Part shown: piece after piece, positions 1,697 through 21,353 of the stretch
Position numbering within the stretch: position 1 is the stretch's first letter
Layout: every line of letters starts with the position of its first letter
DNA from: a virus
DNA: 64,000 nucleotides
Direction: 5' to 3' (one strand)
Virus record (IMG/VR): IMGVR_UViG_3300020182_001907
Notes under the pieces: generated by a model
Databases searched by the model: none
The model's input: the letters and a program-made list of their open reading frames with translations, nothing else
Told to the model about the DNA's origin: nothing
Made by a program: the position numbers and the translations under genes

Positions 1697-2638
1697 TTAA
1701 CGATTAGCAGTATATGTAAACTCCATATCGTTTAAACTAACACCATTTTCACAACTATTGCACATCTCAAAACATGTGTAAGGTTCCGGCGCTATTTCTT
1801 CATATGATTCTAGTATTAGGTTTCCCAGTACATGTTCTAAGTTATAATCCATACAACATAATACAACATCCCCATTAGGCAAACATACGTTATGATATAG
1901 TCCTTCTGGACAATTACAAGTAGTTGGACTTTCAGGAGGATGGCTAGCCCAGTAAAATATTTCGGGAAGCAATTCTGGCTTTAGTAAACGTTCTTTTTCC
2001 AAATTTCCTGCTCTCGAATACATTTTACTTGCACTAAATCCGTTCCAGAGATGGCTGAATTCATCTAATACTTCTCCCATGCACATTACATCAAAATTTT
2101 GTACTCTGTGCTCGTTTTCTTTAATATGCTGTAAAAGTTTACGATATCTATCAGTTATAGGATGCTTTGCTCTTTTTTCTTTGTCAGGCAAATGTAGCAT
2201 GAATCCACCGTTCGGATTTCCAGCAAAAGGTATATGTGCTATTTTCTCAAAATCCTCAACGCTCATACCTATGCCTGTGGTAAAAACACTTACAGGATGC
2301 CCGGTTTCGTGTGCATAAACAATCATATCAGCACAGTGGTTGTTTACAAATGGTTCTGTAAACCCTGCAAATGTAACTCTAAGCTCAAGTGGTAATTTAT
2401 CAACCATGTGTTTAAAGCTATCAAGAGATAACATAGTTAAGTCACTGTATGCTTTAGTTAATACACGCTGCGGGCAAAATACACAATCAACAGGACAACC
2501 TTTTAACGGTATATTTGTTGTAAATTCCATAGTAGGGAAATCTGTAGTTTTCCAAGGATGTGTTGTAAATTTTTTGTGTTTTACCACAGTGTTTACTTTT
2601 TTTGGTATAACTTCAACGGTTTTAATTAAGTTAATCAT
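1697..2638 (-). CDS. Radical SAM protein with SPASM/twitch domain
   Basis: CPVDCVFC (Cx3Cx2C), GFTEPF, C-terminal CNC...PNGDVVLCCMD...CxxC. Confidence 0.85.
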   Translation of the reverse strand: MINLIKTVEVIPKKVNTVVKHKKFTTHPWKTTDFPTMEFTTNIPLKGCPVDCVFCPQRVLTKAYSDLTMLSLDSFKHMVDKLPLELRVTFAGFTEPFVNNHCADMIVYAHETGHPVSVFTTGIGMSVEDFEKIAHIPFAGNPNGGFMLHLPDKEKRAKHPITDRYRKLLQHIKENEHRVQNFDVMCMGEVLDEFSHLWNGFSASKMYSRAGNLEKERLLKPELLPEIFYWASHPPESPTTCNCPEGLYHNVCLPNGDVVLCCMDYNLEHVLGNLILESYEEIAPEPYTCFEMCNSCENGVSLNDMEFTYTANR

Positions 2639-3685: not shown

Positions 3686-4675
3686 TTATTTAACTCCTGC
3701 GTTTAATAACGTAGCAAACTCTGTAGGTTGATCACTAAGTCTCTTTAAATCCCACTTAGCACAAAACTTCATAAAGTGTATGCCTACGTTCTGTACTTTT
3801 TCTTTATTTACTGCCTCAGCAATTACCGCATTGCATGCCTGCTTAACTTCTTCTGGTTGCATGGTTAAATCAATTAATGTACGGTTACGTTCATAGTCAT
3901 CTCGAACACGATGCTCTATATCTTCATGGTCTGTCCAGCGTTGTAGCATAAAGTTATTGTAATTAAAGCCACCAGTGTTTCGATCTGCAAACGCTTCCGA
4001 AATACCAGTTTTATTTTTACTGCCCTTAGTACGTGCGCCTGGGTAAGCAGCAAACACATTGTCTGCACTATCACCACGAACACATTTTTCAAACAGAATC
4101 CATTCAGGATCAGGCAGTACTTTATCTTTACCAGTCTTCTTATCAACTATACGCTTACCACTCTTAGCATCAACAAATCCTTCTAGACTAACAATTGTAT
4201 CCTGTGTGCCGTTATATTGCTTGACATTGGGCGCCATTAGCTGATGGAAATCACTATCTGTACTTACAATAACATGTTGATCATCTGGATGCTTTTGTAT
4301 CCAGGTAGCAATTAGGTCGTCAGCCTCAGCATTACCACACTGGATAACACTAGAGTTTGTCTTTTCAGTAAAGAACTTGATCATGTCATTATAAGCTTCA
4401 AAGAACAATTCGTCATCTTCTTGTTCCCTGACTGATCTTTTAGCTGCTAACACTTTACGATTGGCTTTGTAAGGGGGGTAAAAGTCTTTACGCCATGAAC
4501 GACCTTCTAAACAAAACACAACATGACTGCCGTTAAAATCCTTCCAGGCCTTCTTAATGCTGTTAAACATAATGTGCATTGCCATGCCAATCTTCATGTC
4601 AATGTCCTTACCACCACCCACATGCTTTGCTCTGAAAAACATGTTCAAACTGTCTACTAGGATATATGTTGACAC
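3686..4675 (-). CDS. T4 RNase H-like 5'-3' exonuclease (flap endonuclease family)
   Basis: ILVDSLN, WRKDFYPPYKANR, EADDLIA, STDSDFHQL, RGDSADNV motifs; GGAGG RBS, GTG start. Confidence 0.9.
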   Translation of the reverse strand: MSTYILVDSLNMFFRAKHVGGGKDIDMKIGMAMHIMFNSIKKAWKDFNGSHVVFCLEGRSWRKDFYPPYKANRKVLAAKRSVREQEDDELFFEAYNDMIKFFTEKTNSSVIQCGNAEADDLIATWIQKHPDDQHVIVSTDSDFHQLMAPNVKQYNGTQDTIVSLEGFVDAKSGKRIVDKKTGKDKVLPDPEWILFEKCVRGDSADNVFAAYPGARTKGSKNKTGISEAFADRNTGGFNYNNFMLQRWTDHEDIEHRVRDDYERNRTLIDLTMQPEEVKQACNAVIAEAVNKEKVQNVGIHFMKFCAKWDLKRLSDQPTEFATLLNAGVK

Positions 4676-4684
4676 TGTGACCTC

Positions 4685-5032
4685 CTATGGTCGATTCATT
4701 ACACGTAAATATTTAAGTTTGGTTTTGCCTTTATTGTACACACGATGAAATACACCTGCTTGAACAGTTACAATGTCTTGTGCATTTACTTTGTGTGTTT
4801 CTTCGATTTCTCCCTGCCCTTCGTCAGGATATCTCAAATACATCTCACCTGCGCCCTGGGTAAAAAAGAAAATTTCATCTTGTAAATGATGTTTGTGTCC
4901 AGCAGTATGGCTACCCGAAAACAGGTGAGTGCTACTGAGTATGAGATTATCACCAACAAAGTTATCTTTTACAGTATAACTGTCATTCTCTTTGGTGATA
5001 TGTCCGCCAATGTCATCAAATTCATCCTTCAT
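4685..5032 (-). CDS. Cupin-domain protein
   Basis: GHKHHLQDEIFFFTQGAG and VQAGVFHRVYN cupin motifs 1 and 2. Confidence 0.8.
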   Translation of the reverse strand: MKDEFDDIGGHITKENDSYTVKDNFVGDNLILSSTHLFSGSHTAGHKHHLQDEIFFFTQGAGEMYLRYPDEGQGEIEETHKVNAQDIVTVQAGVFHRVYNKGKTKLKYLRVMNRP

Positions 5033-6147: not shown

Positions 6148-7071
6148 TTATTTTCCTATTGCGTTTCCGTATATATGAACGTGGGCTCTTGTAGTATAGT
6201 TGTAACCACGTTGTATTGCTTCATCAGCAATGTTTGCTTCTGTTAAAGTAAGTCCTTCAAAGGTACCACCAACGCCCATAATCCAAACAGGAAAATCACA
6301 ACCGGCATCTCTAAATGCTTTAGTGTGTTCTTCCACTTCACGCCATGATTCCTTCGAACCGTTTACCACAAACTTTAACTGCCCGTGAGGACTAACCTGT
6401 ACATACTTACCTACTACTTTTGGCTTAATTGCTTTAGAGTTCTTCTCTCCAGCAGTGTTCCACAGTTTAGGTGAAATACTCCAATACCATTCAGGCGAAC
6501 CTAATGAGTCAGATAGCAATCCACCATAATCGCTTGAGGTATAAAATCTTCCTTGTATCCAACTAGCCATCTCGTCTGTGATATGCTGTGTACCGTTTGT
6601 TTCCACAGTAACGTTCTTGGGTGTGTTGAGCCGTTTATGAAACTCCTGCATAACAGCAATCATGCTCTTTTGGCTTGCTTTAAGCATGGGCTCACCACCT
6701 GTAAACACCATGTGTGTCCATTGCTTTGTTTTAGGATGACAGAACTTTCCATGTGGCAGCAATGCAGTTAGTTCGTCTACACCTTGCTCAACAGTGCGAT
6801 TATTAATCAAGTGTCGATACCGTTTGCTCCAAGTATATGAACTGTCACATCCTTTATCAAATACAGGCAAGTCAAACACACTTGTGATGTTAGTAATATC
6901 TAGTGTTTCATAAGGTAGTTCATATGTACTAGGATCAGTAGGATCAGTTTGTCCAAACCCGTCACACTGCAAGTTGCACAGAAAGAAACGCATCCACAAG
7001 CTGGGTATGCCTGTGTATGCGCCTTCGCCTTGTGCACTAAAAAATGTTTCTGAATATTTAAGTGATTCCAT
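6148..7071 (-). CDS. queE: 7-carboxy-7-deazaguanine synthase (QueE-like radical SAM)
   Basis: ETFFSAQGEG..TGIPSLWMRF..CNLQC...GCDSSY, FTGGEP, VETNGT, SISPK, HVHIYGN. Confidence 0.85.
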   Translation of the reverse strand: MESLKYSETFFSAQGEGAYTGIPSLWMRFFLCNLQCDGFGQTDPTDPSTYELPYETLDITNITSVFDLPVFDKGCDSSYTWSKRYRHLINNRTVEQGVDELTALLPHGKFCHPKTKQWTHMVFTGGEPMLKASQKSMIAVMQEFHKRLNTPKNVTVETNGTQHITDEMASWIQGRFYTSSDYGGLLSDSLGSPEWYWSISPKLWNTAGEKNSKAIKPKVVGKYVQVSPHGQLKFVVNGSKESWREVEEHTKAFRDAGCDFPVWIMGVGGTFEGLTLTEANIADEAIQRGYNYTTRAHVHIYGNAIGK

Positions 7072-7615
7072 TTATTTCTCCGAAATCAAATTTTAGACTG
7101 GATAACAGATATTCTATATCGCTCTGCTCTAACTCGCCATAGCTCTTTACAAAAGCATCATATACGATTTGATGCAACATACTTTCCTTAAAATGGTACT
7201 CATTTATGTATAAATCTTTTAAGATGTCACGTAATATATGGTGTAATCCTACCGCAAACAACCGTTTTAAATCGTCAGTGTTTAAATGTACATTTCCATA
7301 TGCAAGCACCGCTAAAAATACCCATTTACTTAGTCCCAGTGTGTGCAGAGATAGTTCGTTTTTTGCGTTGTGGGTTACTTCTAGTTCAATAAATTCCTTA
7401 TTACTAATTTCTGTTGTGTCAAGATAATAATCTATGCAAGCAAATACTTCTTCGTAAGTAACTGGATACAATCTTTTTGTGCGTACTAAGTTCCTATCTA
7501 CTACTACACTTTCTAATACTGCATCCACCGGTGTAGCAGTGGATTCAATAAGCACTTGATTACTAAATTGTCTCCTACCGAACATTATTACGAATGCCCC
7601 TTCATGCTTAAACAT
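7058..7615 (-). CDS. Hypothetical protein
   Basis: 185 aa ORF between folE and queE; start uncertain. Confidence 0.55.
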   Translation of the reverse strand: MFKHEGAFVIMFGRRQFSNQVLIESTATPVDAVLESVVVDRNLVRTKRLYPVTYEEVFACIDYYLDTTEISNKEFIELEVTHNAKNELSLHTLGLSKWVFLAVLAYGNVHLNTDDLKRLFAVGLHHILRDILKDLYINEYHFKESMLHQIVYDAFVKSYGELEQSDIEYLLSSLKFDFGEINGIT

Positions 7616-8259
7616 ACATCGTAAAACTCTTTCTTTAAACTCTTGTCTGATTGGAATAGGCCATGCATAACAGCAGTTGTCATATCCGATTCATGTTCTT
7701 TGACGCCTCTGTGCGTCATACAATGATGTTCTGCTTTAACTAAAACAGCAACATTAGGCGTCTTTGCATACTCCATTAATGCCTCTGCAATCTGTGTAGT
7801 CATCTCTTCCTGAATCTGTGGCCGCTCTGCAATGTGATGTGCTAGACGATTAAACTTGCTGAGACCAATTACTTCTTCCTCAGGAAAAATACCTACCCAA
7901 CACTTTCCAACGATATTTTGAAAATGGTGTGCACAAGTACTCCTGATACTTATAGGTCCTGTAACATACAAGCTTTTGTAGCCCATGTTAGGAAAACTTG
8001 TTACTCTAGGAACAGGTGCATAACGGCCGCCAAATGTTTCCCTAATAAACATTTTTGCAACACGTTTTGCAGTTTCTTGTGTATTGTGATCGTTATCTGT
8101 GTCAATAACCAGGGCTTCTAGTACACTCTGCATAGCAGTTTGTACTTCTGATTGTAATTGATCTAGTTCACCTTCATAGATAAACTCTGCAATATTGTCA
8201 TTACTGTGGAACCGCTTGCCTGCTTTTCCTATGCGGCTACGAATTTTGTCTGAAATCAT
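7588..8259 (-). CDS. folE: GTP cyclohydrolase I
   Basis: ETAKRVAKM, STCAHHF, IGLSKFNR, RPQIQEEMT, AEHHCMTHRGV. Confidence 0.95.
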   Translation of the reverse strand: MISDKIRSRIGKAGKRFHSNDNIAEFIYEGELDQLQSEVQTAMQSVLEALVIDTDNDHNTQETAKRVAKMFIRETFGGRYAPVPRVTSFPNMGYKSLYVTGPISIRSTCAHHFQNIVGKCWVGIFPEEEVIGLSKFNRLAHHIAERPQIQEEMTTQIAEALMEYAKTPNVAVLVKAEHHCMTHRGVKEHESDMTTAVMHGLFQSDKSLKKEFYDVCLSMKGHS

Positions 8260-8329: not shown

Positions 8330-8830
8330 TTAAGACCACCAATTTTCCCAGGGGAATTCAAACCATTGTGTATCGTCAGATCTACGTATATCCCTACCAG
8401 TGAAATCCACTTCAAATTCAACTTCATGGTTATGAATAGCAGCAGCGTAACTTACATAAGCAAAATGGCCTTCATTATGAATAAACTCTGCTATTTGTTT
8501 GAATGTTTTAGCAGTATCACATATATCATCTACTATTAATACGTCTTGACCTACGAAGTATTTTAATATGTCATTGAGTTTACTGGTTTCTCTAATATAG
8601 CCATCCCGAGTTTGCCATGCAACAGCGTGTGTTGGTACACTAAAATAGTGACTTAGTTTGTTAGAGAAGTCTACACCACCTCGCATAATGCCTACAATAA
8701 CATCTGGTTTATAATTAGCGATTGACATTTGACGAACACATTCTGAATAATATCCGTTCATTTGTTGTTCTGATAATTTTTCTATTACAGGCATTGTAAT
8801 TTTTTCCCAGTGGTACTGCTCTTTTGCCAA
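8330..8830 (-). CDS. Purine phosphoribosyltransferase (xanthine-guanine PRT-like, type I)
   Basis: IVGIMRGG, PRPP-binding VLIVDDICDTAKTF, C-terminal WFEFPWE. Confidence 0.85.
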   Translation of the reverse strand: MAKEQYHWEKITMPVIEKLSEQQMNGYYSECVRQMSIANYKPDVIVGIMRGGVDFSNKLSHYFSVPTHAVAWQTRDGYIRETSKLNDILKYFVGQDVLIVDDICDTAKTFKQIAEFIHNEGHFAYVSYAAAIHNHEVEFEVDFTGRDIRRSDDTQWFEFPWENWWS

Positions 8831-9765
8831 TCATATGCATGACTTACTATATCTTTTAAAGTAAACTGTGGCTGCCAGCCTAGTAATTCTTTTGCTTTAG
8901 TAGTATCTGCATTCGTAGCAGCAATATCTCCAGGCCTAGCCGGGCCTACATCATACTCTATTGCTCTTGCATGTTTTTCTATTACTGCATTCATAACATC
9001 TAATATGCTATAAGAATTACCACAGCCAATATTAAATACATCACTAGTTTCTTGGTCATGTATATAATTTAATGCTGCTAGATGCGCAGTAGCAACATCA
9101 TATACATGTGTGTAATCTCTTTGAGCTGTGCCGTCAGGTGTGTTGTAAGAATTACCATTTACTGTAAATGTTTCTTGTTTTAATGCTGAGATGCATAAGG
9201 CTGGAATTAAGTGACTTGCAGGACTTTGTGTATAACCATGGCTTAAGTCAGGCATCGCACCAGCAGCATTAAAATAACGTAGAATTATATAGTTAAAGTC
9301 ATATGCTTTTCTATAATCCTCCAAAATCGTCTCTATAATGAGTTTTGATCTAGCATAGGGACTTTGCGGGTTACAATCGTGTGTCTCGGGTGTAGGAGTA
9401 GATGCATTGCCATAAACACTACTTGAGCTACTGAAGACAAATTCTTTAACACCAGCATCTACAGCACAATTTAGCAGATTGATAGTATTTGCAACATTGT
9501 TTGCATAGTAAACTGCTGGATCAATAACGCTTCTACCAACTTCATGATCAGCAGCAAGGTGTATAATACTGTCAGGTCGTACTAGTTTTATAATACCTTT
9601 TACTTGATTATTGTCAATATCAAAGGGATATTGTGATACTCCTTCTATTTTTTTCTTTTTTCTATCTAAATTAATAACATTGTGTCCTGCGGATACTAAT
9701 AATTTACATACCACAGTACCAATAAAGCCTGAACCTCCTGTAACTAAGATCGTTTTACTTTCCAT
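8785..9765 (-). CDS. galE: UDP-glucose 4-epimerase
   Basis: LVTGGSGFIG, FSSSSSVYG, SPYARSK, LRYFNAAGA, PDGTAQRDYTHV; start MESK at 9765 with GGAG RBS. Confidence 0.9.
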   Translation of the reverse strand: MESKTILVTGGSGFIGTVVCKLLVSAGHNVINLDRKKKKIEGVSQYPFDIDNNQVKGIIKLVRPDSIIHLAADHEVGRSVIDPAVYYANNVANTINLLNCAVDAGVKEFVFSSSSSVYGNASTPTPETHDCNPQSPYARSKLIIETILEDYRKAYDFNYIILRYFNAAGAMPDLSHGYTQSPASHLIPALCISALKQETFTVNGNSYNTPDGTAQRDYTHVYDVATAHLAALNYIHDQETSDVFNIGCGNSYSILDVMNAVIEKHARAIEYDVGPARPGDIAATNADTTKAKELLGWQPQFTLKDIVSHAYDWQKSSTTGKKLQCL

Positions 9766-10747
9766 GTGTGTGTTCTCCAAACCAAACGTCAAAACAATTA
9801 TTTTTTATTTTATATGACTCTGACCCTGTTGTATTTGTTAAAGCATCGCAAACCATATCAATACTTTCTTCAAACCTATCGAATAAAAATTCTTTAGGAT
9901 ATAATTCTGGATAAACTAATCTGTTGGGCAAAATAACATTGCATCCTAAATATGCAGCTTCAGCCATCCCAAAACCAAAATTTTCTTGTAATGCGTAACT
10001 AACAGCACATTTGCTTTTCGCTACTATATTATAGTAATTATCTTTATCCAAGTTCATTTCTTGTGTTTTAAGGAATTTTACTGGAAAATCTAGCTTTTTC
10101 GATACTTGTCGTGCTAGTTCATCAAACAACCATGGCTGCTTTTCATCGCACAACCTTCCATTAAATATTACAATATTATCTTTTTCTGTTCCTAGATGCA
10201 TGTCTAAGCCTACAAAATCTAAAGGTAGTCCGCTAACAATTAGTTTTTCTGACTGTACCATTCTTTTTTTAAGGATGTCATTTCGAATAAAATTACTGGC
10301 GCAAAAAACTTTGTCGGATATGTCAAAAACCATATCCTCGAAGTTTTTTGCCCAGCGTTCCATATCACGTACAAAGTCTGTATCAGTAAAACTTCCTGCA
10401 TGTACAACACCAGTAATTTTTGCATTTACTTTATGAAAATAATTCATATAGGCAATACTTTCGATCCCAGGGAACCAGATATCACTAAAAAAGAACACAT
10501 CATTGTCGGATACTTCGCCACGCTCATACATACTGGCAATTTCTGCCATCTGTAAACTTTTAAATTTAGAAGTAAATGCAGCATTTAAAAAACAACCTTC
10601 AGGTAATCCCGCAGGCTCTCCTGCAGCAGGATATACTCGTACAAATGGAACATTATTGACATTCAAATAATTAAGTATGTCTCTGTCCATATGAACTGTG
10701 TATCTGCCTTCAATATGCTCTAACGGAACATATATAATCTTACCCAT
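9755..10747 (-). CDS. GT-B fold glycosyltransferase
   Basis: IFNGRLCDEKQP, QENFGFGMAEA (Ex7E), PNRLVYPE; likely start MGKIIY at 10747. Confidence 0.8.
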   Translation of the reverse strand: MGKIIYVPLEHIEGRYTVHMDRDILNYLNVNNVPFVRVYPAAGEPAGLPEGCFLNAAFTSKFKSLQMAEIASMYERGEVSDNDVFFFSDIWFPGIESIAYMNYFHKVNAKITGVVHAGSFTDTDFVRDMERWAKNFEDMVFDISDKVFCASNFIRNDILKKRMVQSEKLIVSGLPLDFVGLDMHLGTEKDNIVIFNGRLCDEKQPWLFDELARQVSKKLDFPVKFLKTQEMNLDKDNYYNIVAKSKCAVSYALQENFGFGMAEAAYLGCNVILPNRLVYPELYPKEFLFDRFEESIDMVCDALTNTTGSESYKIKNNCFDVWFGEHTHGK

Positions 10748-10811: not shown

Positions 10812-10991
10812 TTACATTGCGTTCTTTTTGTCCTGGATTTCTGCACGACGAGCTTTTGCAAGTTTTGCAAGTTCTCCCAAAGCCTTACGAGCTCTTGCCG
10901 CAGATGCTTTTACGCCTTTGGTTTCAAACTTCTCGCTTTCTGCGAGATACTCTTCCATTTGTGCTTTAATTTGTAAATGTACTTCTGTCAT
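10812..10991 (-). CDS. Small basic Hc1/histone-H1-like DNA-binding protein (59 aa)
   Basis: Below ORF-track cutoff: MTEVHLQIKAQMEEYLAESEKFETKGVKASAARARKALGELAKLAKARRAEIQDKKNAM; AAGGAG RBS. Confidence 0.7.
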   Translation of the reverse strand: MTEVHLQIKAQMEEYLAESEKFETKGVKASAARARKALGELAKLAKARRAEIQDKKNAM

Positions 10992-11002: not shown

Positions 11003-12088
11003 TTAGTTTGTTTCATACCCTACAGCATAATTGTAATCTACGTAATCCTTCTTACATTTTAGATTACATTCCACCCAGGGCGAACTCTTCCAACTGTTAA
11101 ATAGTTTCTTCCAATGTTCATGATTAAGAACATCTTGCATAGAACTTGTTTTGACACTAAGTTGATCTCTATACATATAAAAGAAACTGTCAGTATAATT
11201 TATTGTTTTATCACCGTCACTCATAGCAATATAGGGAAAACTAGTCCAGGAACAGGGATGTAGTGCACCATCAGCGCTCAAATACATACCTCTGTTTCCC
11301 ACCATGCATAACGGCAAAATATTACCTTGTGGTTTTGCATTTTCATATTTAAAATGGTTAGTTTGCATATAGTTTTCTATAGGCTGTGTCCTGTTGCTAA
11401 TTTTTTTAATGCTTCTTTCGTATCTGTTAGTGCTACTAACAAATTCTGAATCTGGTTCTAAAGGATCGTATTCTCCGTACGATCCGTACTTGCTAGAAAA
11501 CTTTGTGCTTTTAGTCCATTGTACACTATCACAGCCATTTTGTAAAGCCTTATTTTGTATGTCGTAAATATGATCCTGATTAAATTTAAAATATATTGCT
11601 GCCCATACTGTAAATGCATCACTTTCTAATCCTATTATACGCATACCTTCCATTATGCTGTCCCACTCACTGTTTACCCGATATAGTATGTTACTGTCGT
11701 GATCGTAGCCATCTACACTAAAGTTTACAGTATCATAGTTGTTTAATAACCCTGCTAGCTCACGCCACCATTCTGGCTTTTTATAACTGCCGTTAGTGAT
11801 AATGAATATGTGACACGTAGGTTTAAGATTTTTTATATAGCGTACAATGTCTAGCATGTCCTTGCAGTATATAGGATCGCCGATATCTCCGCAAAATGTA
11901 AAACGTTGTACGTGTTCCAGTATAAAATCTTCTGTAAATGCGTTTTTAAACTCCTCAAAAGACCATTCTTTGTTTGTCCAGGAAGTGGCAGGCAATTCAG
12001 TTCTGGGGCACCTAGGACATTTTAGTGTGCACTTAGCACTTAACTCTATGTGCCAATGATATAATTGCCAGCCGTAATTATTAATCAC
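11003..12088 (-). CDS. Radical SAM protein
   Basis: CTLKCPRC, FCGDIGDP, ITNGS, FSVDG, C-terminal Cys cluster. Confidence 0.85.
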   Translation of the reverse strand: MINNYGWQLYHWHIELSAKCTLKCPRCPRTELPATSWTNKEWSFEEFKNAFTEDFILEHVQRFTFCGDIGDPIYCKDMLDIVRYIKNLKPTCHIFIITNGSYKKPEWWRELAGLLNNYDTVNFSVDGYDHDSNILYRVNSEWDSIMEGMRIIGLESDAFTVWAAIYFKFNQDHIYDIQNKALQNGCDSVQWTKSTKFSSKYGSYGEYDPLEPDSEFVSSTNRYERSIKKISNRTQPIENYMQTNHFKYENAKPQGNILPLCMVGNRGMYLSADGALHPCSWTSFPYIAMSDGDKTINYTDSFFYMYRDQLSVKTSSMQDVLNHEHWKKLFNSWKSSPWVECNLKCKKDYVDYNYAVGYETN

Positions 12089-12681
12089 GGCGCTAACCTT
12101 AAAAACTTATCTGCAGAAAATATAAAGTGATATATTTCTTCCGCAACATCTTCAGGCAAAAGGTGTTGATTATCATATAAATTATCAATAGATTTGTGGT
12201 TAGGCTTATGTCTATTATTATTAAAGTTTGTTTTAGTAAGGCCTAACCGAACTTCCTTAACTGTAACACTAGGATGCTCTTGGGAAAGCATATTACCAAA
12301 GTCTTCTAATGCTTTTTTAGATAGACTATATACTAAATCACCAGGCCAAAACTTATCATTGTTTGTGCTTGTGATGTTAACAATTATTACTTCTGAGTTT
12401 TTTCTAATTGCTAACTGACTTAGAGTCATAGGACTTACTAGATTAGCAGAGATAATTTTTTGCCAATCTAAAGTGTTATGCGAACTAAACGGAACTTTAC
12501 CACCCAAGTCGTGACCAGCACAGTTTATTAGCATGTCCACAAATGGCAGGCTTTCTATTCTGTCAGGGTAGTCTAAATCACATGCATTACGTGTTAGTTC
12601 AAACACATTATGTGTGGCTTTTAACAATGTGCTCAGGCACTTTCCTACCCCACTTGATGTTCCGGTAATTGCAACTTCCAT
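12085..12681 (-). CDS. Short-chain dehydrogenase/reductase
   Basis: AITGTSSGVG, INCAG, YSLSK (YxxxK); start MEVAIT at 12681. Confidence 0.85.
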   Translation of the reverse strand: MEVAITGTSSGVGKCLSTLLKATHNVFELTRNACDLDYPDRIESLPFVDMLINCAGHDLGGKVPFSSHNTLDWQKIISANLVSPMTLSQLAIRKNSEVIIVNITSTNNDKFWPGDLVYSLSKKALEDFGNMLSQEHPSVTVKEVRLGLTKTNFNNNRHKPNHKSIDNLYDNQHLLPEDVAEEIYHFIFSADKFLRLAP

Positions 12682-12683
12682 GT

Positions 12684-13091
12684 TTATCCTTGACGCACCT
12701 TCATTGTAAGGTCGCCATAAATATTCTCGCAACCGTTTTCATTGTCTTCGGCTACGGATATTTTTAACCAGCGATTGGGATATTTTGCTTGTATCTCTAA
12801 TGCCAAGTCATCTGCAATCATTTCACAACTCTTGTGATCCAATTGTAGTACACATGTACTGCTTTCTACTTCAGCGTACAATCTTTCTAACCAGCGTTTG
12901 AACTGGATAAATTCAATGTCTCTGTCGTCATGGAACACTTCGATCCATACTTTAAAGTGAAACATGTGTCTATGCGGAAAACCCAGGAAGCTAACATCGT
13001 CCCATTCACCTGTAGCAAGTTTAGGGTCTGTATCTGCACCTGGATACATGTGTACGCCTTCCTTCTGAAAGGTTACCCAAATAGTTCTCAT
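12684..13091 (-). CDS. QueD-paralogous T-fold protein, probably DpdL-type (CDG decarboxylase)
   Basis: EGVH...LGFPHRHMF...SCEMIA...VAEDNENG; HRH replaces QueD CxxxHGH; lies in a folE/queE/dpdA cluster. Confidence 0.65.
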   Translation of the reverse strand: MRTIWVTFQKEGVHMYPGADTDPKLATGEWDDVSFLGFPHRHMFHFKVWIEVFHDDRDIEFIQFKRWLERLYAEVESSTCVLQLDHKSCEMIADDLALEIQAKYPNRWLKISVAEDNENGCENIYGDLTMKVRQG

Positions 13092-13495
13092 TATAATGTC
13101 TCCACAAATTCTGCTAAGTCTTTAATGTCTGCATCACTTAACAAACTAGCCTGACTCCACATCATCGCAGATTGTCTGCCAACCTTCTCACGATTCTTGT
13201 ACGCAACAAGTCGCTCACTAATGTATGCAGCAGTTTGTCCTGCAAGTTTAGGACCAACACCACCTTCGCCTTTGCCACCGTGGCATGCAGCACAGCCAGC
13301 ATACTTCTTTTCACCTGGCAATTTTGGCTGTTCTTTCTTAACTGGAGCACCACCTGCTATAGCCACGGTTGGACTAAACAGTTGGTATTCAACAGTCTTT
13401 GGTTCTTCTTTTGGTGGTGTTACTCTTGTGCCAAACACTTTGTTAGGATCACAAGCTGTGATCAATAAGCATAAACTTACTAATAAAACTCTCAT
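13091..13495 (-). CDS. Cytochrome c (c553/c4-like) lipoprotein
   Basis: Lipobox LITAC, heme motif CAACH, GPKLAGQ, distal Met (AMM), LSDADIKDLAEFV. Confidence 0.9.
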   Translation of the reverse strand: MRVLLVSLCLLITACDPNKVFGTRVTPPKEEPKTVEYQLFSPTVAIAGGAPVKKEQPKLPGEKKYAGCAACHGGKGEGGVGPKLAGQTAAYISERLVAYKNREKVGRQSAMMWSQASLLSDADIKDLAEFVETL

Positions 13496-13925: not shown

Positions 13926-14032
13926 TTATTCAACGCATCTTTTAGTTGCTCTAGAATCACAAGTATGCGCTCAAGCTGTTTCTTGTCTGATACATTATCA
14001 GTGTCAACTTCAAATTCTACTTTAACTTTCAT
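13922..14032 (-). CDS. Micro-ORF (36 aa)
   Basis: MKVKVEFEVDTDNVSDKKQLERILVILEQLKDALNK; fills the gap, ATGA overlap with the next gene. Confidence 0.5.
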   Translation of the reverse strand: MKVKVEFEVDTDNVSDKKQLERILVILEQLKDALNK

Positions 14033-14342
14033 CAGCTTCCTTTACAAACACGCCATCTACCATACGACCTTTGCGATCCTTAATATCATTATACGCTACT
14101 TCTAGACATTCTGTCAAGCTCAGTTTGTTACGTTCAGCGATATTAATTAGTACGACCATCATGTCACCGATATCGTCCCGGATGTCTTTGCCTTTGCAAA
14201 TGTTATCCGATAGCTCACCTGCTTCCTGAATAAGTTTAGCAAACTGTGTCTTATCATCTGAACCTTTAATAAGGTTCCTATCGTGATGCCATTGCTTGAT
14301 ATTTTCTACCCAAGCAAGAATAGTTGTATCTTCCATTGCCAT
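14022..14342 (-). CDS. MazG-like NTP pyrophosphohydrolase
   Basis: QFAKLIQEAGEL...DDIGDMMVVL...AYNDIKDRKG. Confidence 0.8.
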   Translation of the reverse strand: MAMEDTTILAWVENIKQWHHDRNLIKGSDDKTQFAKLIQEAGELSDNICKGKDIRDDIGDMMVVLINIAERNKLSLTECLEVAYNDIKDRKGRMVDGVFVKEADES

Positions 14343-15871
14343 TATATTTCTCCTAAAATATCTTCAAAGTTTGCATATTCCTCTGGTTTTGTCTCTTCCG
14401 ACTCTTCAAAAAAGTCAACACTTAGAGATGATTCCTGGTCTAGATCACCAAAACTTATTTCTTCCAAAAACGGCTTGTACTCTTTTAGCATTTCATAAGG
14501 ATTTTTACAGTCAGGATGCAACACTTCTTTTACAAAACTATCAAAATACACTACACTGTAAGGTACATATGGAGAGAACTCATTTGTTCCTTTGTTCTTT
14601 TTGTCTCTAATCCAGTCTTTGTATGTCAAATCAGTTCTGTATTTTTCCACATCAGCAAGACGATTTGCTTCCTGTACTGCAAATATATGGTTGTAAACAC
14701 TGTGCGCCATATAATACAAATAACTCTGCGTATCCCAGCTGGTGCTTCCTGCTTTTTTAGGTTTGCCGTTTCGATCCAGGTCACCTTCAGCCATAGCACA
14801 AATATCACCAGTAGTAAGTCTACTCATAATAGGAGATGCAGCAAATGGCATCGGCAAATCGCTGCCCTTCAAGCCCTGTTGATCAATAGCCCTATCCATA
14901 AAGTAACTAAACTTTTTAGGAGAAAAGAAATTATACGAGTATGTTGTCCCGTATGCTGTGTTCACAAAAGGGCTAGCAGCATCAAAACTTACTATAACAT
15001 CTTTGCTATAGTGTTCGCGGATAGTTCGTTGGATGCTTGTTAAATAACAACCCCAGTTCAACCTACCTGTTCCCAAAAAGTGAATCCAACCTTTGTTCTG
15101 TAGCAACCCATCGTCTTTAAGATTAAGTAATCTTTTGAGCGCCAAATACATGTTACTCTTGTTATTGCCAGCAAAAGCAAAGCCTTCAAGTGCAAGTTCA
15201 GCATCTCCGTAGTTTTCTTCCACCCAAGCAGGATCTGAAAATTGTTTAACGCCTTCATACCAGATATCAGATGTTGCTTCATCATTTCCACTAAGGATAT
15301 TCATAAATTTTGTTGCGCCAAGCACACGGTTTTTTAAAAAGTAATCAATATTTAAACAAGTAATATCAACACAAGTTTGGAAGTCCTTAAGTCCTGTTCG
15401 TTCGTTCAACGGAGGGATCGCTGCTACACTGGGAACATCAAGTATCATACTCCAATCTGTAGTATATTCTAACCATCGCAGCACTTTTTCGCAAAGTGCA
15501 AGTCTAGCAGGATCATTAGGATCTGTTACTGTTTCCCAGTCCATTTTAATAACGCCAGTTGCTACTTGGAACCCACCACTATCTCCTAGCACTACAGTTT
15601 TATTTCGGTTACGTCCCTGTACCATAGGTTCCTGAGAATCTGTTTTTTTCAAATCCAGTTGTGCATGTCCTGCACTATACAGAGTGTAAGGATAATGATA
15701 GTAACTATCCACTTCTTTCAAAAAGTCCATCCCTTCATGACCATGTTCTAAACCAACTGGAATTCTTGGTGCTTCTTCTTTAGATAACTTATCAAGTTGT
15801 TTTACATAGAAACTACTAAGTGCTGGTAAGTATACTGCATAGTCTCTTTGAGTTTTTCCTAAATCAAACAT
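14342..15871 (-). CDS. dpdA: TGT-fold 7-deazaguanine transglycosylase (DpdA-like)
   Basis: TGT catalytic motif GDSGGFQ, MILD, IHFLG, SFDAASP; no CxCxxC zinc site of tRNA TGTs; clustered with folE/queE and replication genes. Confidence 0.75.
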   Translation of the reverse strand: MFDLGKTQRDYAVYLPALSSFYVKQLDKLSKEEAPRIPVGLEHGHEGMDFLKEVDSYYHYPYTLYSAGHAQLDLKKTDSQEPMVQGRNRNKTVVLGDSGGFQVATGVIKMDWETVTDPNDPARLALCEKVLRWLEYTTDWSMILDVPSVAAIPPLNERTGLKDFQTCVDITCLNIDYFLKNRVLGATKFMNILSGNDEATSDIWYEGVKQFSDPAWVEENYGDAELALEGFAFAGNNKSNMYLALKRLLNLKDDGLLQNKGWIHFLGTGRLNWGCYLTSIQRTIREHYSKDVIVSFDAASPFVNTAYGTTYSYNFFSPKKFSYFMDRAIDQQGLKGSDLPMPFAASPIMSRLTTGDICAMAEGDLDRNGKPKKAGSTSWDTQSYLYYMAHSVYNHIFAVQEANRLADVEKYRTDLTYKDWIRDKKNKGTNEFSPYVPYSVVYFDSFVKEVLHPDCKNPYEMLKEYKPFLEEISFGDLDQESSLSVDFFEESEETKPEEYANFEDILGEI

Positions 15872-15876
15872 ATTTC

Positions 15877-16632
15877 TTAACCCTTAGCTGGAAGTAAGTA
15901 TGTGTATTCACCAATACCACTGCTAACTTTAATTTGTAAAAGTCCTTTAGTATTAATACTCATAACAATACCAGCGCTGTCACCCAAACGTAAAATTTTC
16001 AATACTACGTCCAAAGGCCATTTAAACTCATGAGTGATTTGACCGTTTGGTGCATCATTAATTAAAATTTTTGTCCTATCACCACCAGCATCACCAATAT
16101 AAAAATATAACTTTCCATCTTCTGTACGAGGGGAGAAAGTGCTTTCAAAAGCACTTAACACGCCGTTGAAATATGCTAAGTCTTTTAAGTTTTTTTGACT
16201 AGGTACAATACTTAGATCGAAATCTGCTCCTTTAAACTTAATTTCTTTTAATTGTGCATTAACAACATCAGCAAGCATAAATCTGTAATGTGCATCTGTA
16301 CCATTCTCGTCAACAAACGCAACTTCAGTTGGAACATCCACACCATTTCGTGACTGTTTAATAACTTGAACAGTCGCTACATCAGAGTCAAAGCCTGGAT
16401 ATTTTAAGTAACCGTCTAGTACATTCATACGACTTAAACCAACAGTGCTATCAACAAAATCAGCAACAGGATTTACCATAGACCCTTTAAAAATAACAGT
16501 CTTGTCTGCATCTACTGTTTCTACTTCTGTACTAGAACCAGTACCTGAAATTTTAACCATTTCAAAAATACCCAAGCTGTGGGTGTGTTTAAGTACGTCT
16601 TTCAGTACATCCTTAATCGCATTTTCTGCCAT
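15877..16632 (-). CDS. Probable DNA polymerase sliding clamp
   Basis: 251 aa alpha/beta protein of gp45/PCNA size, C-terminal strand YTYLLP, next to polB; inferred mostly from context. Confidence 0.55.
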   Translation of the reverse strand: MAENAIKDVLKDVLKHTHSLGIFEMVKISGTGSSTEVETVDADKTVIFKGSMVNPVADFVDSTVGLSRMNVLDGYLKYPGFDSDVATVQVIKQSRNGVDVPTEVAFVDENGTDAHYRFMLADVVNAQLKEIKFKGADFDLSIVPSQKNLKDLAYFNGVLSAFESTFSPRTEDGKLYFYIGDAGGDRTKILINDAPNGQITHEFKWPLDVVLKILRLGDSAGIVMSINTKGLLQIKVSSGIGEYTYLLPAKG

Positions 16633-16919: not shown

Positions 16920-16948
16920 ATTATACTAGAAATCGAAGAATGTGTCAA
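16920..16948 (-). promoter_or_regulatory. Sigma70-like promoter overlapping the polB 3' end
   Basis: TTGACA-N17-TATAAT. Confidence 0.6.
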
Positions 16949-19613
16949 GTGCTTCTGAGTCCTTAATACGGGTAAGATCCCATCCCATAGCACCTAACAC
17001 GTTATTAATCTTCTTGTTAAGCACACTTTCCTCCATCAAGTCGTCATCAAAGGGTAACTCTTTGAACCATTGCGGCAACTGTAGTTCATCTGTAGGGTAT
17101 GCAACGTTTGTGTATCCCATTGCATTATTTTTAAGTCTACAAACAATAACTTTCATACCATCTGTTACTTGCATGCTGTATTGATCGCCATTCATTTTTT
17201 TAAGAATGTTCCAATGTATACTTGCAGTTACATGACCTGGCATCATGTTGTTTACGGGTTTGCCATCAATTAGGGGTTTACGTTTTTTAGCAAACGGATC
17301 CTCACCGCCTAAACCTTTGAGCTTGTTATACTTAACCGTGTATGGTGTTAAGTTGTTAACTCGTTTAGGCATACCTTTTTCCCAAGGATTAAGCCCTTGA
17401 AAATATGTTTTAAACTTTTTAATCTTTGCTATAACTTCTGTTTCTGGAACACCTTCTAGTGCGTTGTCTAATATTTCTTCTAGAAAGTCTTGAATAAATT
17501 CAGGGGTATCTGAACGTTTGATATCCATGCCCATGATTTTTAGTTTACCACCCTCGGGCTGGTATCCTTCAATATCCAAACACTTGATTGCATAACGCTT
17601 CTTGGTAATGAACAATCCTGATCTACCAACTACCTCCCTGCCTGCCTTCATTACTTGTCCAGCACTAATTGGTACGTTAAACTGTTTGTTCAACATATCA
17701 GGGAAAGTGTCACTTACTTGATCTGAAATAGTATCATACAGTTTAATAGCACTTTCCATGTCCAGCTCAGTGCCCTCTGGCAATACATTTGCTGCTGTAA
17801 AATATACGCTATCAGTATCTCCGTATATTATAGTCTCGCCACTATAGTCGTAGATTCCTGTGAGCAGTCTATTTGTTTCTGCTGCCATATGTTTTGTAAT
17901 GGCTCTGCCTGTAAGTGTGGTGCTCTGGCCAATACGTTTATCGAAAAAACGACACCCAGCATTAAGAATAGCGCCATATAATGAGTTAAGGTTAATTTTT
18001 TTAACCAACTGTCTTTTGTCCCAGAACGCAATATCAGCCGCAGTTGTTGCTGCTTTTTTCTTTGCTTGTAGTTCCTTCCTTTCTGCATACCACCTCTCTA
18101 ATAAGCCAGGAATGATTCCCTGAAAGTCCGTTTTAAATATAGTGCCATTTGCTGATATATTCCAAGGCTGCTCACCATTAAAAATTAAGTTATATATGTC
18201 AGCACCAGTCACTTCATGAGTGCTACCATCATCCATATCTAAATGCATGATATGATCAACGTCCTTACTTATCATAAATTCGTATTCACTAGTAGTAAAC
18301 TTTCCTACCCAAGCATCTGCAAACGACCTTTTTTCTAAAGACATCCTGTTATTAATTTCTTCATCTGTATAAGTTGGTCTAAGTTGACCCACAATAGTTT
18401 CCGGTCCCATATTGAGTGCACGAATTACACTAGGGTATAGACTGTTCAAGTCCATGCTGCCAATCCATTCATGGAATCCTTTCTTGGGAAAGGCAACAAA
18501 TGCACCTGCTGCTTTACCGTCCTTTTCTTCTCTGTGTCGATCAGGAACAACATACCCACGTCTGTGCGCTTCGTTAATAATTGCTTGTTCTGTGGTTGCA
18601 ACAGCACCCATTGTGGTTGGTAGTAACACGGTGTTATCGTGTGCAATTGTATTTGCTAAATCAATAAACTGGAGCTTCTTGTCTAGTTTGTCTAGTAACA
18701 TAACGTCCTGAATATTGTATTCTAAAAACAGTTTAAAGTCATGATTATATAATCTATCTAAACTGCCTTCGTATGCAACCTTCTTCTCACCAACTTCCAT
18801 CTCTCCAATGAAGTCCAACCTATAACTGTGTCGTTCTTCGTAGTTGTACTTCTGGTACAGTTGCATATAGTCTAAGTGAATGCGCCCTATTAAATCATAT
18901 GTCTGTGATTCCTTACCGTAACGTTCAAACACTCTTTCTTTTGGACGTTGATCCCACAAACACAATTTTCTAGTCTCTGCTTTGCCCAATACTTTTATAA
19001 TACGATTAGTAGTGTACGGTATATCATAACCTTCCGAATTCCAACCGCTTAATACATCAGCATCATCAATCACCATTAAAAACTTTTGCAACATTTCCTT
19101 TTCCGTTTCACACAACATGACTTCGGGCATGTCAGAGACAATTGATTCTGCTTGCTTCCAGCTTAGTGTTTTGGGAGGAACAGCCAAACAAATCATAGCG
19201 TCCATCCATTGCAGGTAGACGCCTATGCTTGTTATTTCCATAAATGCTTCTTCAGGTGAACTATATCCTCTCTCAGGATCAAAGTCTACCTCGATGTCAA
19301 AAAATGCTGTTTGGAGTACAGGTTGATCAGCACCTGAATAGTGCTTTGCAATAGTTTTGTTAACAGGTTTAATGTCGCTTTCAAACATCTTATTATGTCT
19401 GTTAAAGGCAACATTCTTTCGGAAGTCCTTGAGATTTTTACATCTTATCTCAGCTACGGGATCACCGTAAATACTGCGATGGCTACCACGAGGATCTGAA
19501 ACATAAAAGTTGTATTCAGGCCTGTGGTCCACTAATATACGCTTACCATCAACACGTTCTACGACTCGAACGAGGTCTTTGTGTTTGTCGTAGAATGCAT
19601 CTACGTATGACAT
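16926..19613 (-). CDS. Family B DNA polymerase
   Basis: Exonuclease FFDIEVD, GWNSEGYDIPY, YNIQD; polymerase DLNSLYPS, KINLNSLYG, YGDTDS, KKRY. Confidence 0.97.
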   Translation of the reverse strand: MSYVDAFYDKHKDLVRVVERVDGKRILVDHRPEYNFYVSDPRGSHRSIYGDPVAEIRCKNLKDFRKNVAFNRHNKMFESDIKPVNKTIAKHYSGADQPVLQTAFFDIEVDFDPERGYSSPEEAFMEITSIGVYLQWMDAMICLAVPPKTLSWKQAESIVSDMPEVMLCETEKEMLQKFLMVIDDADVLSGWNSEGYDIPYTTNRIIKVLGKAETRKLCLWDQRPKERVFERYGKESQTYDLIGRIHLDYMQLYQKYNYEERHSYRLDFIGEMEVGEKKVAYEGSLDRLYNHDFKLFLEYNIQDVMLLDKLDKKLQFIDLANTIAHDNTVLLPTTMGAVATTEQAIINEAHRRGYVVPDRHREEKDGKAAGAFVAFPKKGFHEWIGSMDLNSLYPSVIRALNMGPETIVGQLRPTYTDEEINNRMSLEKRSFADAWVGKFTTSEYEFMISKDVDHIMHLDMDDGSTHEVTGADIYNLIFNGEQPWNISANGTIFKTDFQGIIPGLLERWYAERKELQAKKKAATTAADIAFWDKRQLVKKINLNSLYGAILNAGCRFFDKRIGQSTTLTGRAITKHMAAETNRLLTGIYDYSGETIIYGDTDSVYFTAANVLPEGTELDMESAIKLYDTISDQVSDTFPDMLNKQFNVPISAGQVMKAGREVVGRSGLFITKKRYAIKCLDIEGYQPEGGKLKIMGMDIKRSDTPEFIQDFLEEILDNALEGVPETEVIAKIKKFKTYFQGLNPWEKGMPKRVNNLTPYTVKYNKLKGLGGEDPFAKKRKPLIDGKPVNNMMPGHVTASIHWNILKKMNGDQYSMQVTDGMKVIVCRLKNNAMGYTNVAYPTDELQLPQWFKELPFDDDLMEESVLNKKINNVLGAMGWDLTRIKDSEALDTFFDF

Positions 19614-20186: not shown

Positions 20187-21353
20187 TTATACGCTAACTT
20201 CAATCACTTGACTCATATTTTTTCCACCAAAGCCAAAACTGTTGTTAATCATTACAAGTTTATCTTTTTTAGGGAGAGCTTGGTTTAAAGTAGCAAGTTT
20301 ATTGTTTGTGTCAAAGGAACATATTTCTAAATTTTGGATATGCGGTACTGTACCTTGTTTCATTGATTCTATGCAGTATATTGTTTCTAACGTGCCTGCA
20401 CCACCTATAGTATGACCTACTTTGGACTTTGGAGCCCATATTACTGAGTCGGGTAGCGTTTTTGCTATAGCACTATATTCAACAACGTCTCCTACAGGAG
20501 TAGATGTAGCATGAGCGCATACAGCGTCCACTGTAGGATAGCCTGCATTCTTTAGTGCGCTTGTTATACTTTGTATTGCCCCTCTACCGTCCTCAGCAGG
20601 TGAAGTTATATGAAGACCTTCTGATGCATGTCCTGGAGTATACAGTTTAGCATGTGATGTACTGCCATACTCTTTGGCTTTCTCTTCACTTTGTAATATC
20701 AACACACCTGCACCTTCCCCCATAACAAATCCTGATCTATAGTCATCAAATGGTTTATTGTCTGCTGAAATTGCTCCTATGGTTGTAAATCCTTTTAACG
20801 CCATAGGATAACATCCTGCATCAGCACTGCCAACAATAACATATTCGTATTCATCTAATAGTCGCATAGCATAATCTATACCTACTAATCCTGTTGCACA
20901 CGCAGCAGCAACACTAGTAGACATTCCATGAAACCCCCAATGGCTTACAACATGGTATGTTACCATATCTGTTATTCGGTTAATCATTCTTCTAGGTTGT
21001 ACTTTGCGATTTTCTAGTAATTTAGAAAAGTCAGTAGATACAAACTCTCCTTCGCTTAAAGTAGAGGATATAATAACTGCTACGTCTTTTTTTATTGGTA
21101 GTTTAGAGTGAGATATTGCAATATTTGTAGCATGCATTGCAAACTTTTGCGCTCTTGTTAATGCTCTAGGTTTAAACCCTTCTGGATATTCTATACAGTT
21201 ATCATCAACCATGTATCCTCGATTTATGGGATAATCAGACATAAAATCTAACTGTTTGATATAATCATGATCATCTAACATCCTGTTAAATGATGATAAT
21301 GAATTATTGCCTAACACGTCAATAGAACCATAACCTACAACATGAGCTTGCAT
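20187..21353 (-). CDS. Beta-ketoacyl-ACP synthase (FabF-like)
   Basis: Cys-His-His triad: AACATG, HATSTPVGD, KSKVGHTIGGAG; GFVMGEGAG, NSFGFGGKN. Confidence 0.92.
   Translation of the reverse strand: MQAHVVGYGSIDVLGNNSLSSFNRMLDDHDYIKQLDFMSDYPINRGYMVDDNCIEYPEGFKPRALTRAQKFAMHATNIAISHSKLPIKKDVAVIISSTLSEGEFVSTDFSKLLENRKVQPRRMINRITDMVTYHVVSHWGFHGMSTSVAAACATGLVGIDYAMRLLDEYEYVIVGSADAGCYPMALKGFTTIGAISADNKPFDDYRSGFVMGEGAGVLILQSEEKAKEYGSTSHAKLYTPGHASEGLHITSPAEDGRGAIQSITSALKNAGYPTVDAVCAHATSTPVGDVVEYSAIAKTLPDSVIWAPKSKVGHTIGGAGTLETIYCIESMKQGTVPHIQNLEICSFDTNNKLATLNQALPKKDKLVMINNSFGFGGKNMSQVIEVSV

Follow-up and report, generated by a model that had tools for sequence, protein, structure and literature searches.

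A GT4-like glycosyltransferase conserved beside phage 7-deazaguanine genes, a candidate for sugar decoration of deazaguanine in DNA

The viral DNA analysed here (IMG/VR record IMGVR_UViG_3300020182_001907) is a 64-kb part of a large phage genome, which we call the window, and nearly all of its genes lie on the minus strand. A replication block beside the polB gene holds a glycosyltransferase (GT) gene, the epimerase gene galE and several genes of the 7-deazaguanine DNA-modification (dpd) pathway. This association of GT and dpd genes, which is real, conserved and so far undescribed, is the subject of this report. Genes were assigned by profile matches to Pfam, PHROG and NCBIfam (Table 1), and the scans covered 60 open reading frames (ORFs) of the window, about 25 smaller ORFs lying outside them.

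The original prediction, made from the letters of the window, described the GT, galE and a phosphoribosyltransferase (PRTase) gene as an overlapping chain placed between a T-fold gene and folE. Read directly from the DNA, the GT gene starts with an ATG at 10747, preceded by AAGGA, and ends with TAA at 9757-9755. galE runs from an ATG at 9765, preceded by GGAG, to a stop at 8787-8785, and the PRTase gene from an ATG at 8794 to a stop at 8332-8330. The overlaps are thus 11 nt (GT/galE) and 10 nt (galE/PRTase), all on the minus strand, and the chain was confirmed. A longer GT frame, from a TTG and reaching to 10870, was rejected because homologs align from residue 1. The placement was right in outline, but a short-chain dehydrogenase (SDR), a radical SAM/SPASM protein and a small Hc1-like ORF separate the T-fold gene, dpdL, from the GT, and a 70-nt gap with a promoter-like site separates the PRTase gene from folE. 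That site, at 8314-8286 (minus strand), matches the sigma-70 consensus at 11 of 12 positions, and a perfect consensus (TTGACA-18-TATAAT) was found at 14117-14088 (minus strand) within the MazG-like gene. Promoter-like sites were not enriched in the window (39, against 39.1 in shuffles), and these sigma-70 matches are leads only.

We surveyed 59 loci with GT relatives (27-72% identity), and one or more 7-deazaguanine genes lay beside the GT in all 59. DpdL or a DpdA-type transglycosylase was present in 58 of them, the exception being a GT at a contig edge, and DpdL lay within 1.5 kb of the GT in 51. Forty-nine of the loci are IMG/VR viral contigs (GT relatives 50-72% identical, DpdL nearly always adjacent) that were retrieved by peptide patterns of the window GT, and they are close kin and not independent samples. 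Eighteen GenBank phage records matched the GT at E<1e-17, and every one of them has DpdL; these records (the PA5oct group, ACP17, X1 and BUDD, BUCT-ZZ01, Phosso and BCSR5) place the GT in six cultured phage lineages, X1/BUDD being one. In the five lineages inspected (PA5oct, Phosso, ACP17, X1, BUCT-ZZ01), the GT adjoins DpdL, usually a DpdA-type gene, FolE and QueE. Eight distant representatives (29-35% identity) were chosen blind to gene context, and all eight adjoin a phrog_887 DpdA and/or DpdL, FolE, QueC, QueD or QueE. Their gene orders are QueC-GT-DpdA (L058), GT-DpdA (L059 and L063), FolE-GT-DpdA (L060), QueD-QueE-FolE-DpdL-GT2-GT-DpdA (L062), QueE-FolE-DpdL-GT (L064), GT-cupin-DpdA (L065) and DpdL-radical SAM/SPASM-GT-DpdA (L066). 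The DpdA-type neighbours tested (L037, L058, L059, L060) matched the queuine tRNA-ribosyltransferase family in PHROGs, and a Pfam scan of them gave no match. Across the survey, pathway genes flank the GT in at least four gene orders and with three DpdA types.

The original prediction had held that the GT should co-occur with DpdL and DpdA and should not have homologs living independently of dpd genes, and the direct observation of its neighbourhoods agrees with this throughout the family. Only an edge-of-family group (about 24% identity over 60% of the length), from Xanthomonas jumbo phages, has no dpd genes nearby. In one of these, Xanthomonas phage PhiXhv-12 (L057:4618-7852), as also in Erwinia jumbo phages, the outgroup GT stands with GlmS and an LmbE/BshB-like deacetylase, an arrangement resembling a BshA/BshB-like trio. 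Conversely, the GT was absent from 10 of 28 DpdL-bearing GenBank phage records, Cellulophaga phage phiST among them. In another GT-less phage, Rhizobium phage RHph_I1_18 (L054:7408-8232), the gene after DpdL encodes a macro-domain (Appr-1-p processing) protein, which may be a different tailoring or counter-defence partner.

The gene for sugar metabolism beside the GT is not constant. GalE is found there in 17 loci, L062 has a GT2 enzyme in this place and L065 a cupin of mannose-phosphate-isomerase type, and this variation supports a real sugar chemistry with a variable sugar. The GT2 gene of L062 (5429-6975 of that locus) lies directly upstream of the GT homolog on a 38-kb contig with terminase and portal genes, and the pair hints at a two-sugar decoration.

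The GT itself is barely recognisable by sequence. Its match to Glycos_transf_1 (PF00534) reached 18.4 bits against a gathering cut-off of 26.4, no NCBIfam match was found, and the family profile matched GT4 chains in PDB weakly (best E 7e-6). Close relatives are 63-72% identical, and matches at E<=1e-3 comprised 1382 clusters (50% identity clusters). An AlphaFold2 model built from an alignment of 70 relatives had a predicted local distance difference test score (pLDDT) of 94.6 and a predicted template modelling score of 0.90, and it has the two Rossmann-like domains of a GT-B fold. The top solved structures were BshA, MshA and sucrose-phosphate synthase at Z 24.8, with a root mean square deviation of 3.1-3.4 Å over about 300 aligned residues for BshA/MshA, followed by tll1591, GlgM, PglA, TreT and PimA. 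Two tetrahydrobiopterin (BH4) glucosyltransferases matched at Z 22.2 and 21.6. All of the best solved matches are GT4-type retaining enzymes, and we call the GT GT4-like, not a curated GT4 member.

The motifs of the donor side can be seen directly in the family alignment. The EX7E motif (E255/E263, QENFGFGMAE), R198 and K203 are invariant in the 70 relatives, and the HAG motif is invariant or nearly so, down to 28% identity. By analogy, R198 and K203 would be the Arg/Lys pair that binds the donor diphosphate. Since these motifs are kept throughout the family, the donor side of a sugar-nucleotide transferase is judged to be intact, and the GT is predicted to be a retaining enzyme. Fold and motifs thus bear out the claim that this is a GT-B enzyme.

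The GT is acidic (isoelectric point, pI, 5.1; family median 5.9), and we rejected pI as a test of DNA binding. Canonical DpdA has a pI of 9.3, but the T4 alpha-glucosyltransferase has 6.1 and the beta-glucosyltransferase 9.05, and pI does not discriminate because the alpha enzyme is acidic too. A clamp-docking tail on the GT was also rejected, as in its C-terminal end (FDVWFGEHTHGK) the WF lies within a confidently predicted helix and close relatives do not conserve the Asp; the C-terminus of polB reads LDTFFDF. Fused GT forms were not found at 579-2000 aa, which is weak evidence, and a predicted complex of the GT, DpdL and a 509-aa protein of the tRNA-guanine transglycosylase (TGT) fold scored 0.02 against a mark of 0.32, a result that counts neither way.

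The epimerase matched TIGR01179 at 321 bits, against an equivalog cut-off of 262, and in an alignment with E. coli GalE it keeps GxxGxxG and the catalytic S124, Y149 and K153, which are invariant. By this match and alignment, it is a true GalE. The position of E. coli Tyr299 is occupied by Thr, or in one of the relatives by Asn. Small residues at that site admit N-acetylated UDP-sugars, so that UDP-N-acetylgalactosamine (UDP-GalNAc) would be as possible a product of the phage GalE as UDP-galactose (UDP-Gal). GalE lies beside the GT in 17 of the 59 loci (the window and 16 related loci), all of the window's clade, where it overlaps the GT or lies within about 10 nt of it, and 20 loci with sufficient flanking sequence lack it. 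As GalE is confined to this clade, a UDP-Gal or UDP-GalNAc donor, as originally proposed, is not a general requirement of the GT family; in the window, a real GalE is coupled to the GT.

The third gene of the chain matched PF00156 at 64 bits (cut-off 26) and has an intact phosphoribosyl pyrophosphate loop, VLIVDDICDTAKT. The best named family was hypoxanthine-guanine PRTase, at a score below the cut-off of that family, and the gene is present in 29 of the 59 GT loci. Most plausibly, this PRTase would recycle the guanine released by base exchange; alternatively, its product might be a deazapurine nucleotide, in the manner of TubE in the tubercidin pathway.

The LxxxHRHxF signature that defines DpdL (PMC10516641) is present as LGFPHRHMF, and it holds in 24 of 25 aligned DpdL relatives. 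FolE and a QueE-like gene are both present, the latter matching NCBIfam QueE models below their cut-offs. The 509-aa protein carries GDSGGFQ and HFLGTG motifs and aligned with the DpdA of the ACP17/X1 type at 90% hhalign probability. Its AlphaFold2 model (pLDDT 69, with a confident core) found tRNA-guanine transglycosylases in 48 of the 49 PDB matches listed by Foldseek, at weak E values of at least 3e-3, while a PDB search with its sequence gave no match. These motifs and this fold make it a candidate DpdA-type transglycosylase. Its pI is 4.9, compared with about 5.9 for ACP17/X1-type transglycosylases and about 9.3 for canonical short phage DpdA, and the proteins of its family have a disordered C-terminal tail of acidic and hydrophobic residues (NFEDILGEI; in relatives, IMSGDFEA). 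This tail may serve for docking to the replisome, or these acidic enzymes may not act on naked duplex DNA.

A search by tblastn with four phage QueD proteins gave no match in the 64-kb window. A 185-aa protein encoded between FolE and QueE had no Pfam, PHROG or NCBIfam match, and it was rejected as a hidden QueD (hhalign 0.2%). Copies of 22-31% identity occupy the same position in the window's clade, and the gene is kept there in a clade without a nearby QueD. QueD may lie elsewhere in this phage's genome, by analogy with PA5oct, in which the QueD-like gene of 6-pyruvoyltetrahydropterin synthase (PTPS) type, gp230, is distant from QueE, gp162 (PMC12191111).

Table 1. Features of the replication and modification block of the window, with the evidence for each assignment. 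CDG, 7-carboxy-7-deazaguanine.
Feature	Position	Strand	Evidence or remark
Family B DNA polymerase	16926-19613	-	PF00136 124 bits, PF03104 63 bits; heads replication block
251-aa protein; homolog in Phosso annotated as sliding clamp	15877-16632	-	
509-aa TGT-fold protein, candidate DpdA-type transglycosylase	14342-15871	-	motifs, hhalign, AlphaFold2/Foldseek
MazG-like pyrophosphohydrolase	14022-14342	-	PF03819 22.4 bits, at cut-off
Cytochrome-c-like ORF	13091-13495	-	PF00034, E 1e-11
DpdL (QueD-like T-fold, predicted CDG decarboxylase)	12684-13091	-	LxxxHRHxF signature
SDR	12085-12681	-	PF00106 69.6 bits; TGxxxGxG and YxxxK motifs
Radical SAM/SPASM protein	11003-12088	-	PF04055 39 bits; SPASM weak
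59-aa Lys/Ala-rich Hc1/H1-like ORF	10812-10991	-	composition read from sequence
GT4-like GT-B glycosyltransferase (GT), 330 aa	9755-10747	-	AlphaFold2 model, motifs
GalE, UDP-glucose 4-epimerase, 326 aa	8785-9765	-	TIGR01179
Type I purine-like PRTase, 154 aa	8330-8794	-	PF00156
FolE, GTP cyclohydrolase I	7588-8259	-	PF01227 158 bits; phrog_2197
185-aa protein without family match, between FolE and QueE	7058-7615	-	
QueE-like radical SAM enzyme (CDG synthase candidate)	6148-7071	-	phrog_2076 E 4e-48
5'-3' exonuclease	3686-4675	-	

Taken together, we lean, with confidence a little above even, towards a role of the GT as an optional tailoring enzyme of the phage 7-deazaguanine pathway, which would put a sugar on the deazaguanine unit, at the level of the free base, the nucleotide or the DNA. 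We call the step optional because the GT always occurs with dpd genes, while dpd clusters also occur without it, as in phiST, with its plain 2'-deoxy-7-deazaguanine (dDG). In the proposed route, FolE, a QueD encoded outside the window and the QueE-like enzyme would make CDG, which DpdL is predicted to turn into 7-deazaguanine, and the DpdA-like protein would then swap this base for guanine in the phage DNA. Finally, the GT would transfer one hexose or N-acetylhexosamine from a UDP-sugar to the deazaguanine unit, probably with retained alpha configuration, and in the window's clade a translationally coupled GalE would provide UDP-Gal or UDP-GalNAc. The expected outcome is virion DNA with glycosylated 7-deazaguanine in this and other GT phages, possibly at most or all guanines, and here with galactose or GalNAc attached to N2 or to a group borne on C7; this we put forward tentatively, at somewhat below even confidence. 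Gene order, overlaps, folds, intact donor-side motifs and co-occurrence are what the analysis shows, and the deazaguanine acceptor, the location of the product in DNA and the identity of the sugar are inferred.

As to the site of attachment, the exocyclic N2 is a possible acceptor, with a precedent in huimycin and dapiramicin, and a C7-borne group would be possible if DpdL were not a decarboxylase. Members of the GT family accompany DpdL and also, in one locus at least (L058), adjoin QueC; this suggests an acceptor atom that all deazaguanines share, or else diverged specificities within the family. A known GT4-type enzyme acting on a 7-deazapurine base is HuiG, which glycosylates N2 (bioRxiv 10.64898/2026.04.15.718813). 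DNA of PA5oct, one of the phages with this GT, is resistant to enzymes with G in their recognition sites (PMC12191111).

Several points weigh against this reading. 7-Deazaguanine offers no nucleophile, neither hydroxyl nor amine, in the major groove. The window has no canonical QueC or QueD within its 64 kb, so that the pathway is not demonstrably complete from the window alone. The GT fails the PF00534 threshold, and the kinship of the 49 IMG/VR loci lowers the weight of their count. The comparison with T4 alpha- and beta-glucosyltransferases on one side and GT4 enzymes on the other, which the original prediction had proposed, favoured GT4 enzymes whose acceptors are small and soluble (BshA, MshA, sucrose-phosphate synthase and BH4 glucosyltransferase). 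Neither T4 enzyme appears in the list of the 50 top-ranking structures, and by sequence neither is related to the GT (hhalign 1.4% for a-gt and 0.1% for b-gt). As weak evidence by analogy, these structural neighbours lean slightly towards action of the GT on a free base or nucleotide. What was first proposed as sugar transfer to the modified base is partly supported: the intact GT and GalE and the dpd linkage uphold it, the generality of its donor is not upheld, and the deazaguanine acceptor is its conjectural part.

Of the other explanations, the one that survives best, although we regard it as unlikely, is that the acceptor of the GT is a small pathway molecule that is not built into DNA, either a pterin derived from the FolE product or the free deazapurine base, and that the product would serve, for instance, as a storage form, inhibitor or signal. 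This would suit the small acceptors of its top structural matches, including the BH4 glucosyltransferases, as well as the adjoining T-fold protein, the nearby FolE and the precedent of HuiG. The SDR of the window, which is weakly pteridine-reductase-like, would also suit it, but this gene is absent from every other locus. Moreover, the cyanobacterial BH4 glucosyltransferase BGluT is no closer to the GT than other GT4 enzymes, and the GT profile misses it by sequence in PDB. Some distant relatives have no DpdL in their short available flanks (L058, L060, L063, L065), and the DNA transglycosylase (phrog_887) directly after the GT in distant relatives is hard to explain for a pterin product.

Slightly less probable still is that the GT serves as an accessory of the transglycosylase, in base exchange or DNA handling, or that DpdA, the Hc1-like protein or another protein of the system is its acceptor. 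The GT does adjoin DpdA-type genes of three divergent subfamilies, and DpdA3-type enzymes were reported inactive alone in E. coli, where "other unknown enzymes" were suggested (PMC10516641). Against such a role stand the invariant donor-side residues of the GT, the dedicated GalE coupled to it here, and phiST, which reaches full dDG replacement without a GT.

We consider it improbable that the GT glycosylates another site in DNA, namely another base or a pyrimidine hydroxymethylated by enzymes that are encoded beyond the window, and that its dpd linkage reflects a shared modification block. The 64 kb read here belong to a genome extending at least 91 kb beyond the window start, and T4-like phages also have DNA glucosyltransferase genes in the replication region. 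However, as the original prediction had noted, no hydroxymethylase was visible, nor any thymidylate-synthase-like gene, among the 60 window ORFs scanned (about 25 smaller ORFs being outside the scan), and the dpd tie holds across unrelated phage types, including the 38-kb contig L062, and not in one genome layout. That GT and GalE are ordinary enzymes of envelope or virion glycans, in the block by chance, is very improbable: source labels do name relatives "glycosyltransferase involved in cell wall biosynthesis", but dpd genes lie beside the GT in 59 of 59 loci, the GT is placed in the replication block, and neither a membrane segment nor a lipid-carrier enzyme adjoins it.

Further genes around the cluster differ in how widely they are shared. 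The Hc1-like ORF lies between DpdL and the GT across the window's clade (63-78% identical). The SDR and the radical SAM/SPASM protein next to it (11003-12681) have no copy in L001-L052 (49 loci from IMG/VR and three from GenBank phages), and a cytochrome-c-like ORF inside the replication and modification block, odd for a phage, is absent from all related loci; all three may contribute further tailoring. Relatives of this radical SAM protein, 26% identical, were found in Campylobacter phages CP220 and F379, which have 2'-deoxy-7-amido-7-deazaguanine (dADG) DNA, and in a Pelagibacter phage, with no other phage relatives. Downstream of the cluster are a second radical SAM/SPASM protein (1697-2638, minus strand) and a small cupin (4685-5032, minus strand), neither with copies in related loci. 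Between the SPASM part of the second protein and the radical SAM protein that adjoins the GT in L066 there is a weak resemblance (E 2e-4), but a link between the L066 protein and the two of the window was rejected, as there was no clear relation. Pseudomonas jumbo phage PA5oct has a family B polymerase 52% identical to the one in the window. A beta-ketoacyl synthase gene (FabF/FabB-like; 20187-21353, minus strand), with both Pfam domains above threshold, lies immediately upstream of the polymerase block, and a 727-aa ORF at 42696-44879 (minus strand) matches phrog_4871, "ATP-dependent protease", with E 2.6e-238.

To our knowledge, the sugar-bearing DNA bases known so far are all pyrimidines, namely glucosyl- or arabinosyl-cytosine derivatives and base J, and all eight 7-deazaguanines described in DNA are free of sugar. 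In line with the original prediction, full-text literature searches found no characterised glycosylated deazaguanine in DNA. If our reading is true, this would be the first sugar-bearing purine analogue in any DNA, a purine counterpart of glucosyl-hydroxymethylcytosine and base J, and a new chemical class of DNA modification. It would then bear on the escape of phages from restriction enzymes and from the recently described glycosylases that attack deazaguanine DNA, and it would matter for sequencing and cloning the DNA of abundant uncultured phages. The GT may also be the "unknown enzyme" for want of which DpdL/DpdA3 systems could not be reconstituted in E. coli. In the 2023 paper where DpdL and DpdA3 were defined, the word "glycosyltransferase" does not occur (PMC10516641).

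Among known systems, the DpdL/DpdA3 system of phiST has in common with the window FolE and QueE, DpdL with its LxxxHRHxF signature, a MazG-like gene and a transglycosylase of divergent TGT fold, and in both the genes stand beside polymerase genes and QueC is missing (PMC10516641). In contrast to the window, phiST lacks a GT, GalE and PRTase, and its DpdA3 has 259 aa as compared with 509 aa here; no canonical QueD lies in the window. Measurement of phiST DNA showed plain dDG in place of all G (PMC10516641). The T4 alpha- and beta-glucosyltransferases are likewise phage GT-B enzymes that use a UDP-sugar, are encoded in the replication region and share with our proposal the decoration of an already modified base. 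However, they have no sequence relation to the window GT and their acceptor is hydroxymethylcytosine, for which no pathway was seen in the window ORFs scanned, whereas the acceptor here would be a purine analogue.

BGluT of cyanobacteria (PDB 5ZES, 9V0L) shares the GT4-type fold (Z 21.6-22.2) and takes an acceptor from a FolE/PTPS route, but a dozen other GT4 enzymes are at least as close to the GT, the sequence profile does not reach BGluT, and it has no link to a DNA transglycosylase. The tubercidin pathway resembles the window in its CDG cluster without QueC, a PF00156 PRTase (TubE, which acts on CDG) and a decarboxylation step. It differs in its UbiD-type decarboxylase and in its product, a free nucleoside antibiotic, and guanine salvage is at least as likely for the PRTase of the window. 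HuiG, which serves the synthesis of huimycin and is grouped here with the N2-glycosides of the dapiramicin type, comes from a cluster of FolE/QueD/QueE type, puts a UDP-N-acetylhexosamine sugar onto a 7-deazapurine base, and contains PF13439 (Glyco_transf_4), which we take to be a marker of GT4-type enzymes. Set against the window GT by description only, it differs as an enzyme of actinomycete secondary metabolism, with no DpdA and no insertion into nucleic acid. In galactosyl- and mannosyl-queuosine of eukaryotic tRNA (QTGAL, QTMAN), a sugar joins a 7-deazaguanine derivative that is already part of a nucleic acid, which is the parallel to the proposed route; the acceptor there is the cyclopentenediol, and genes for the queuosine side chain are not present here.

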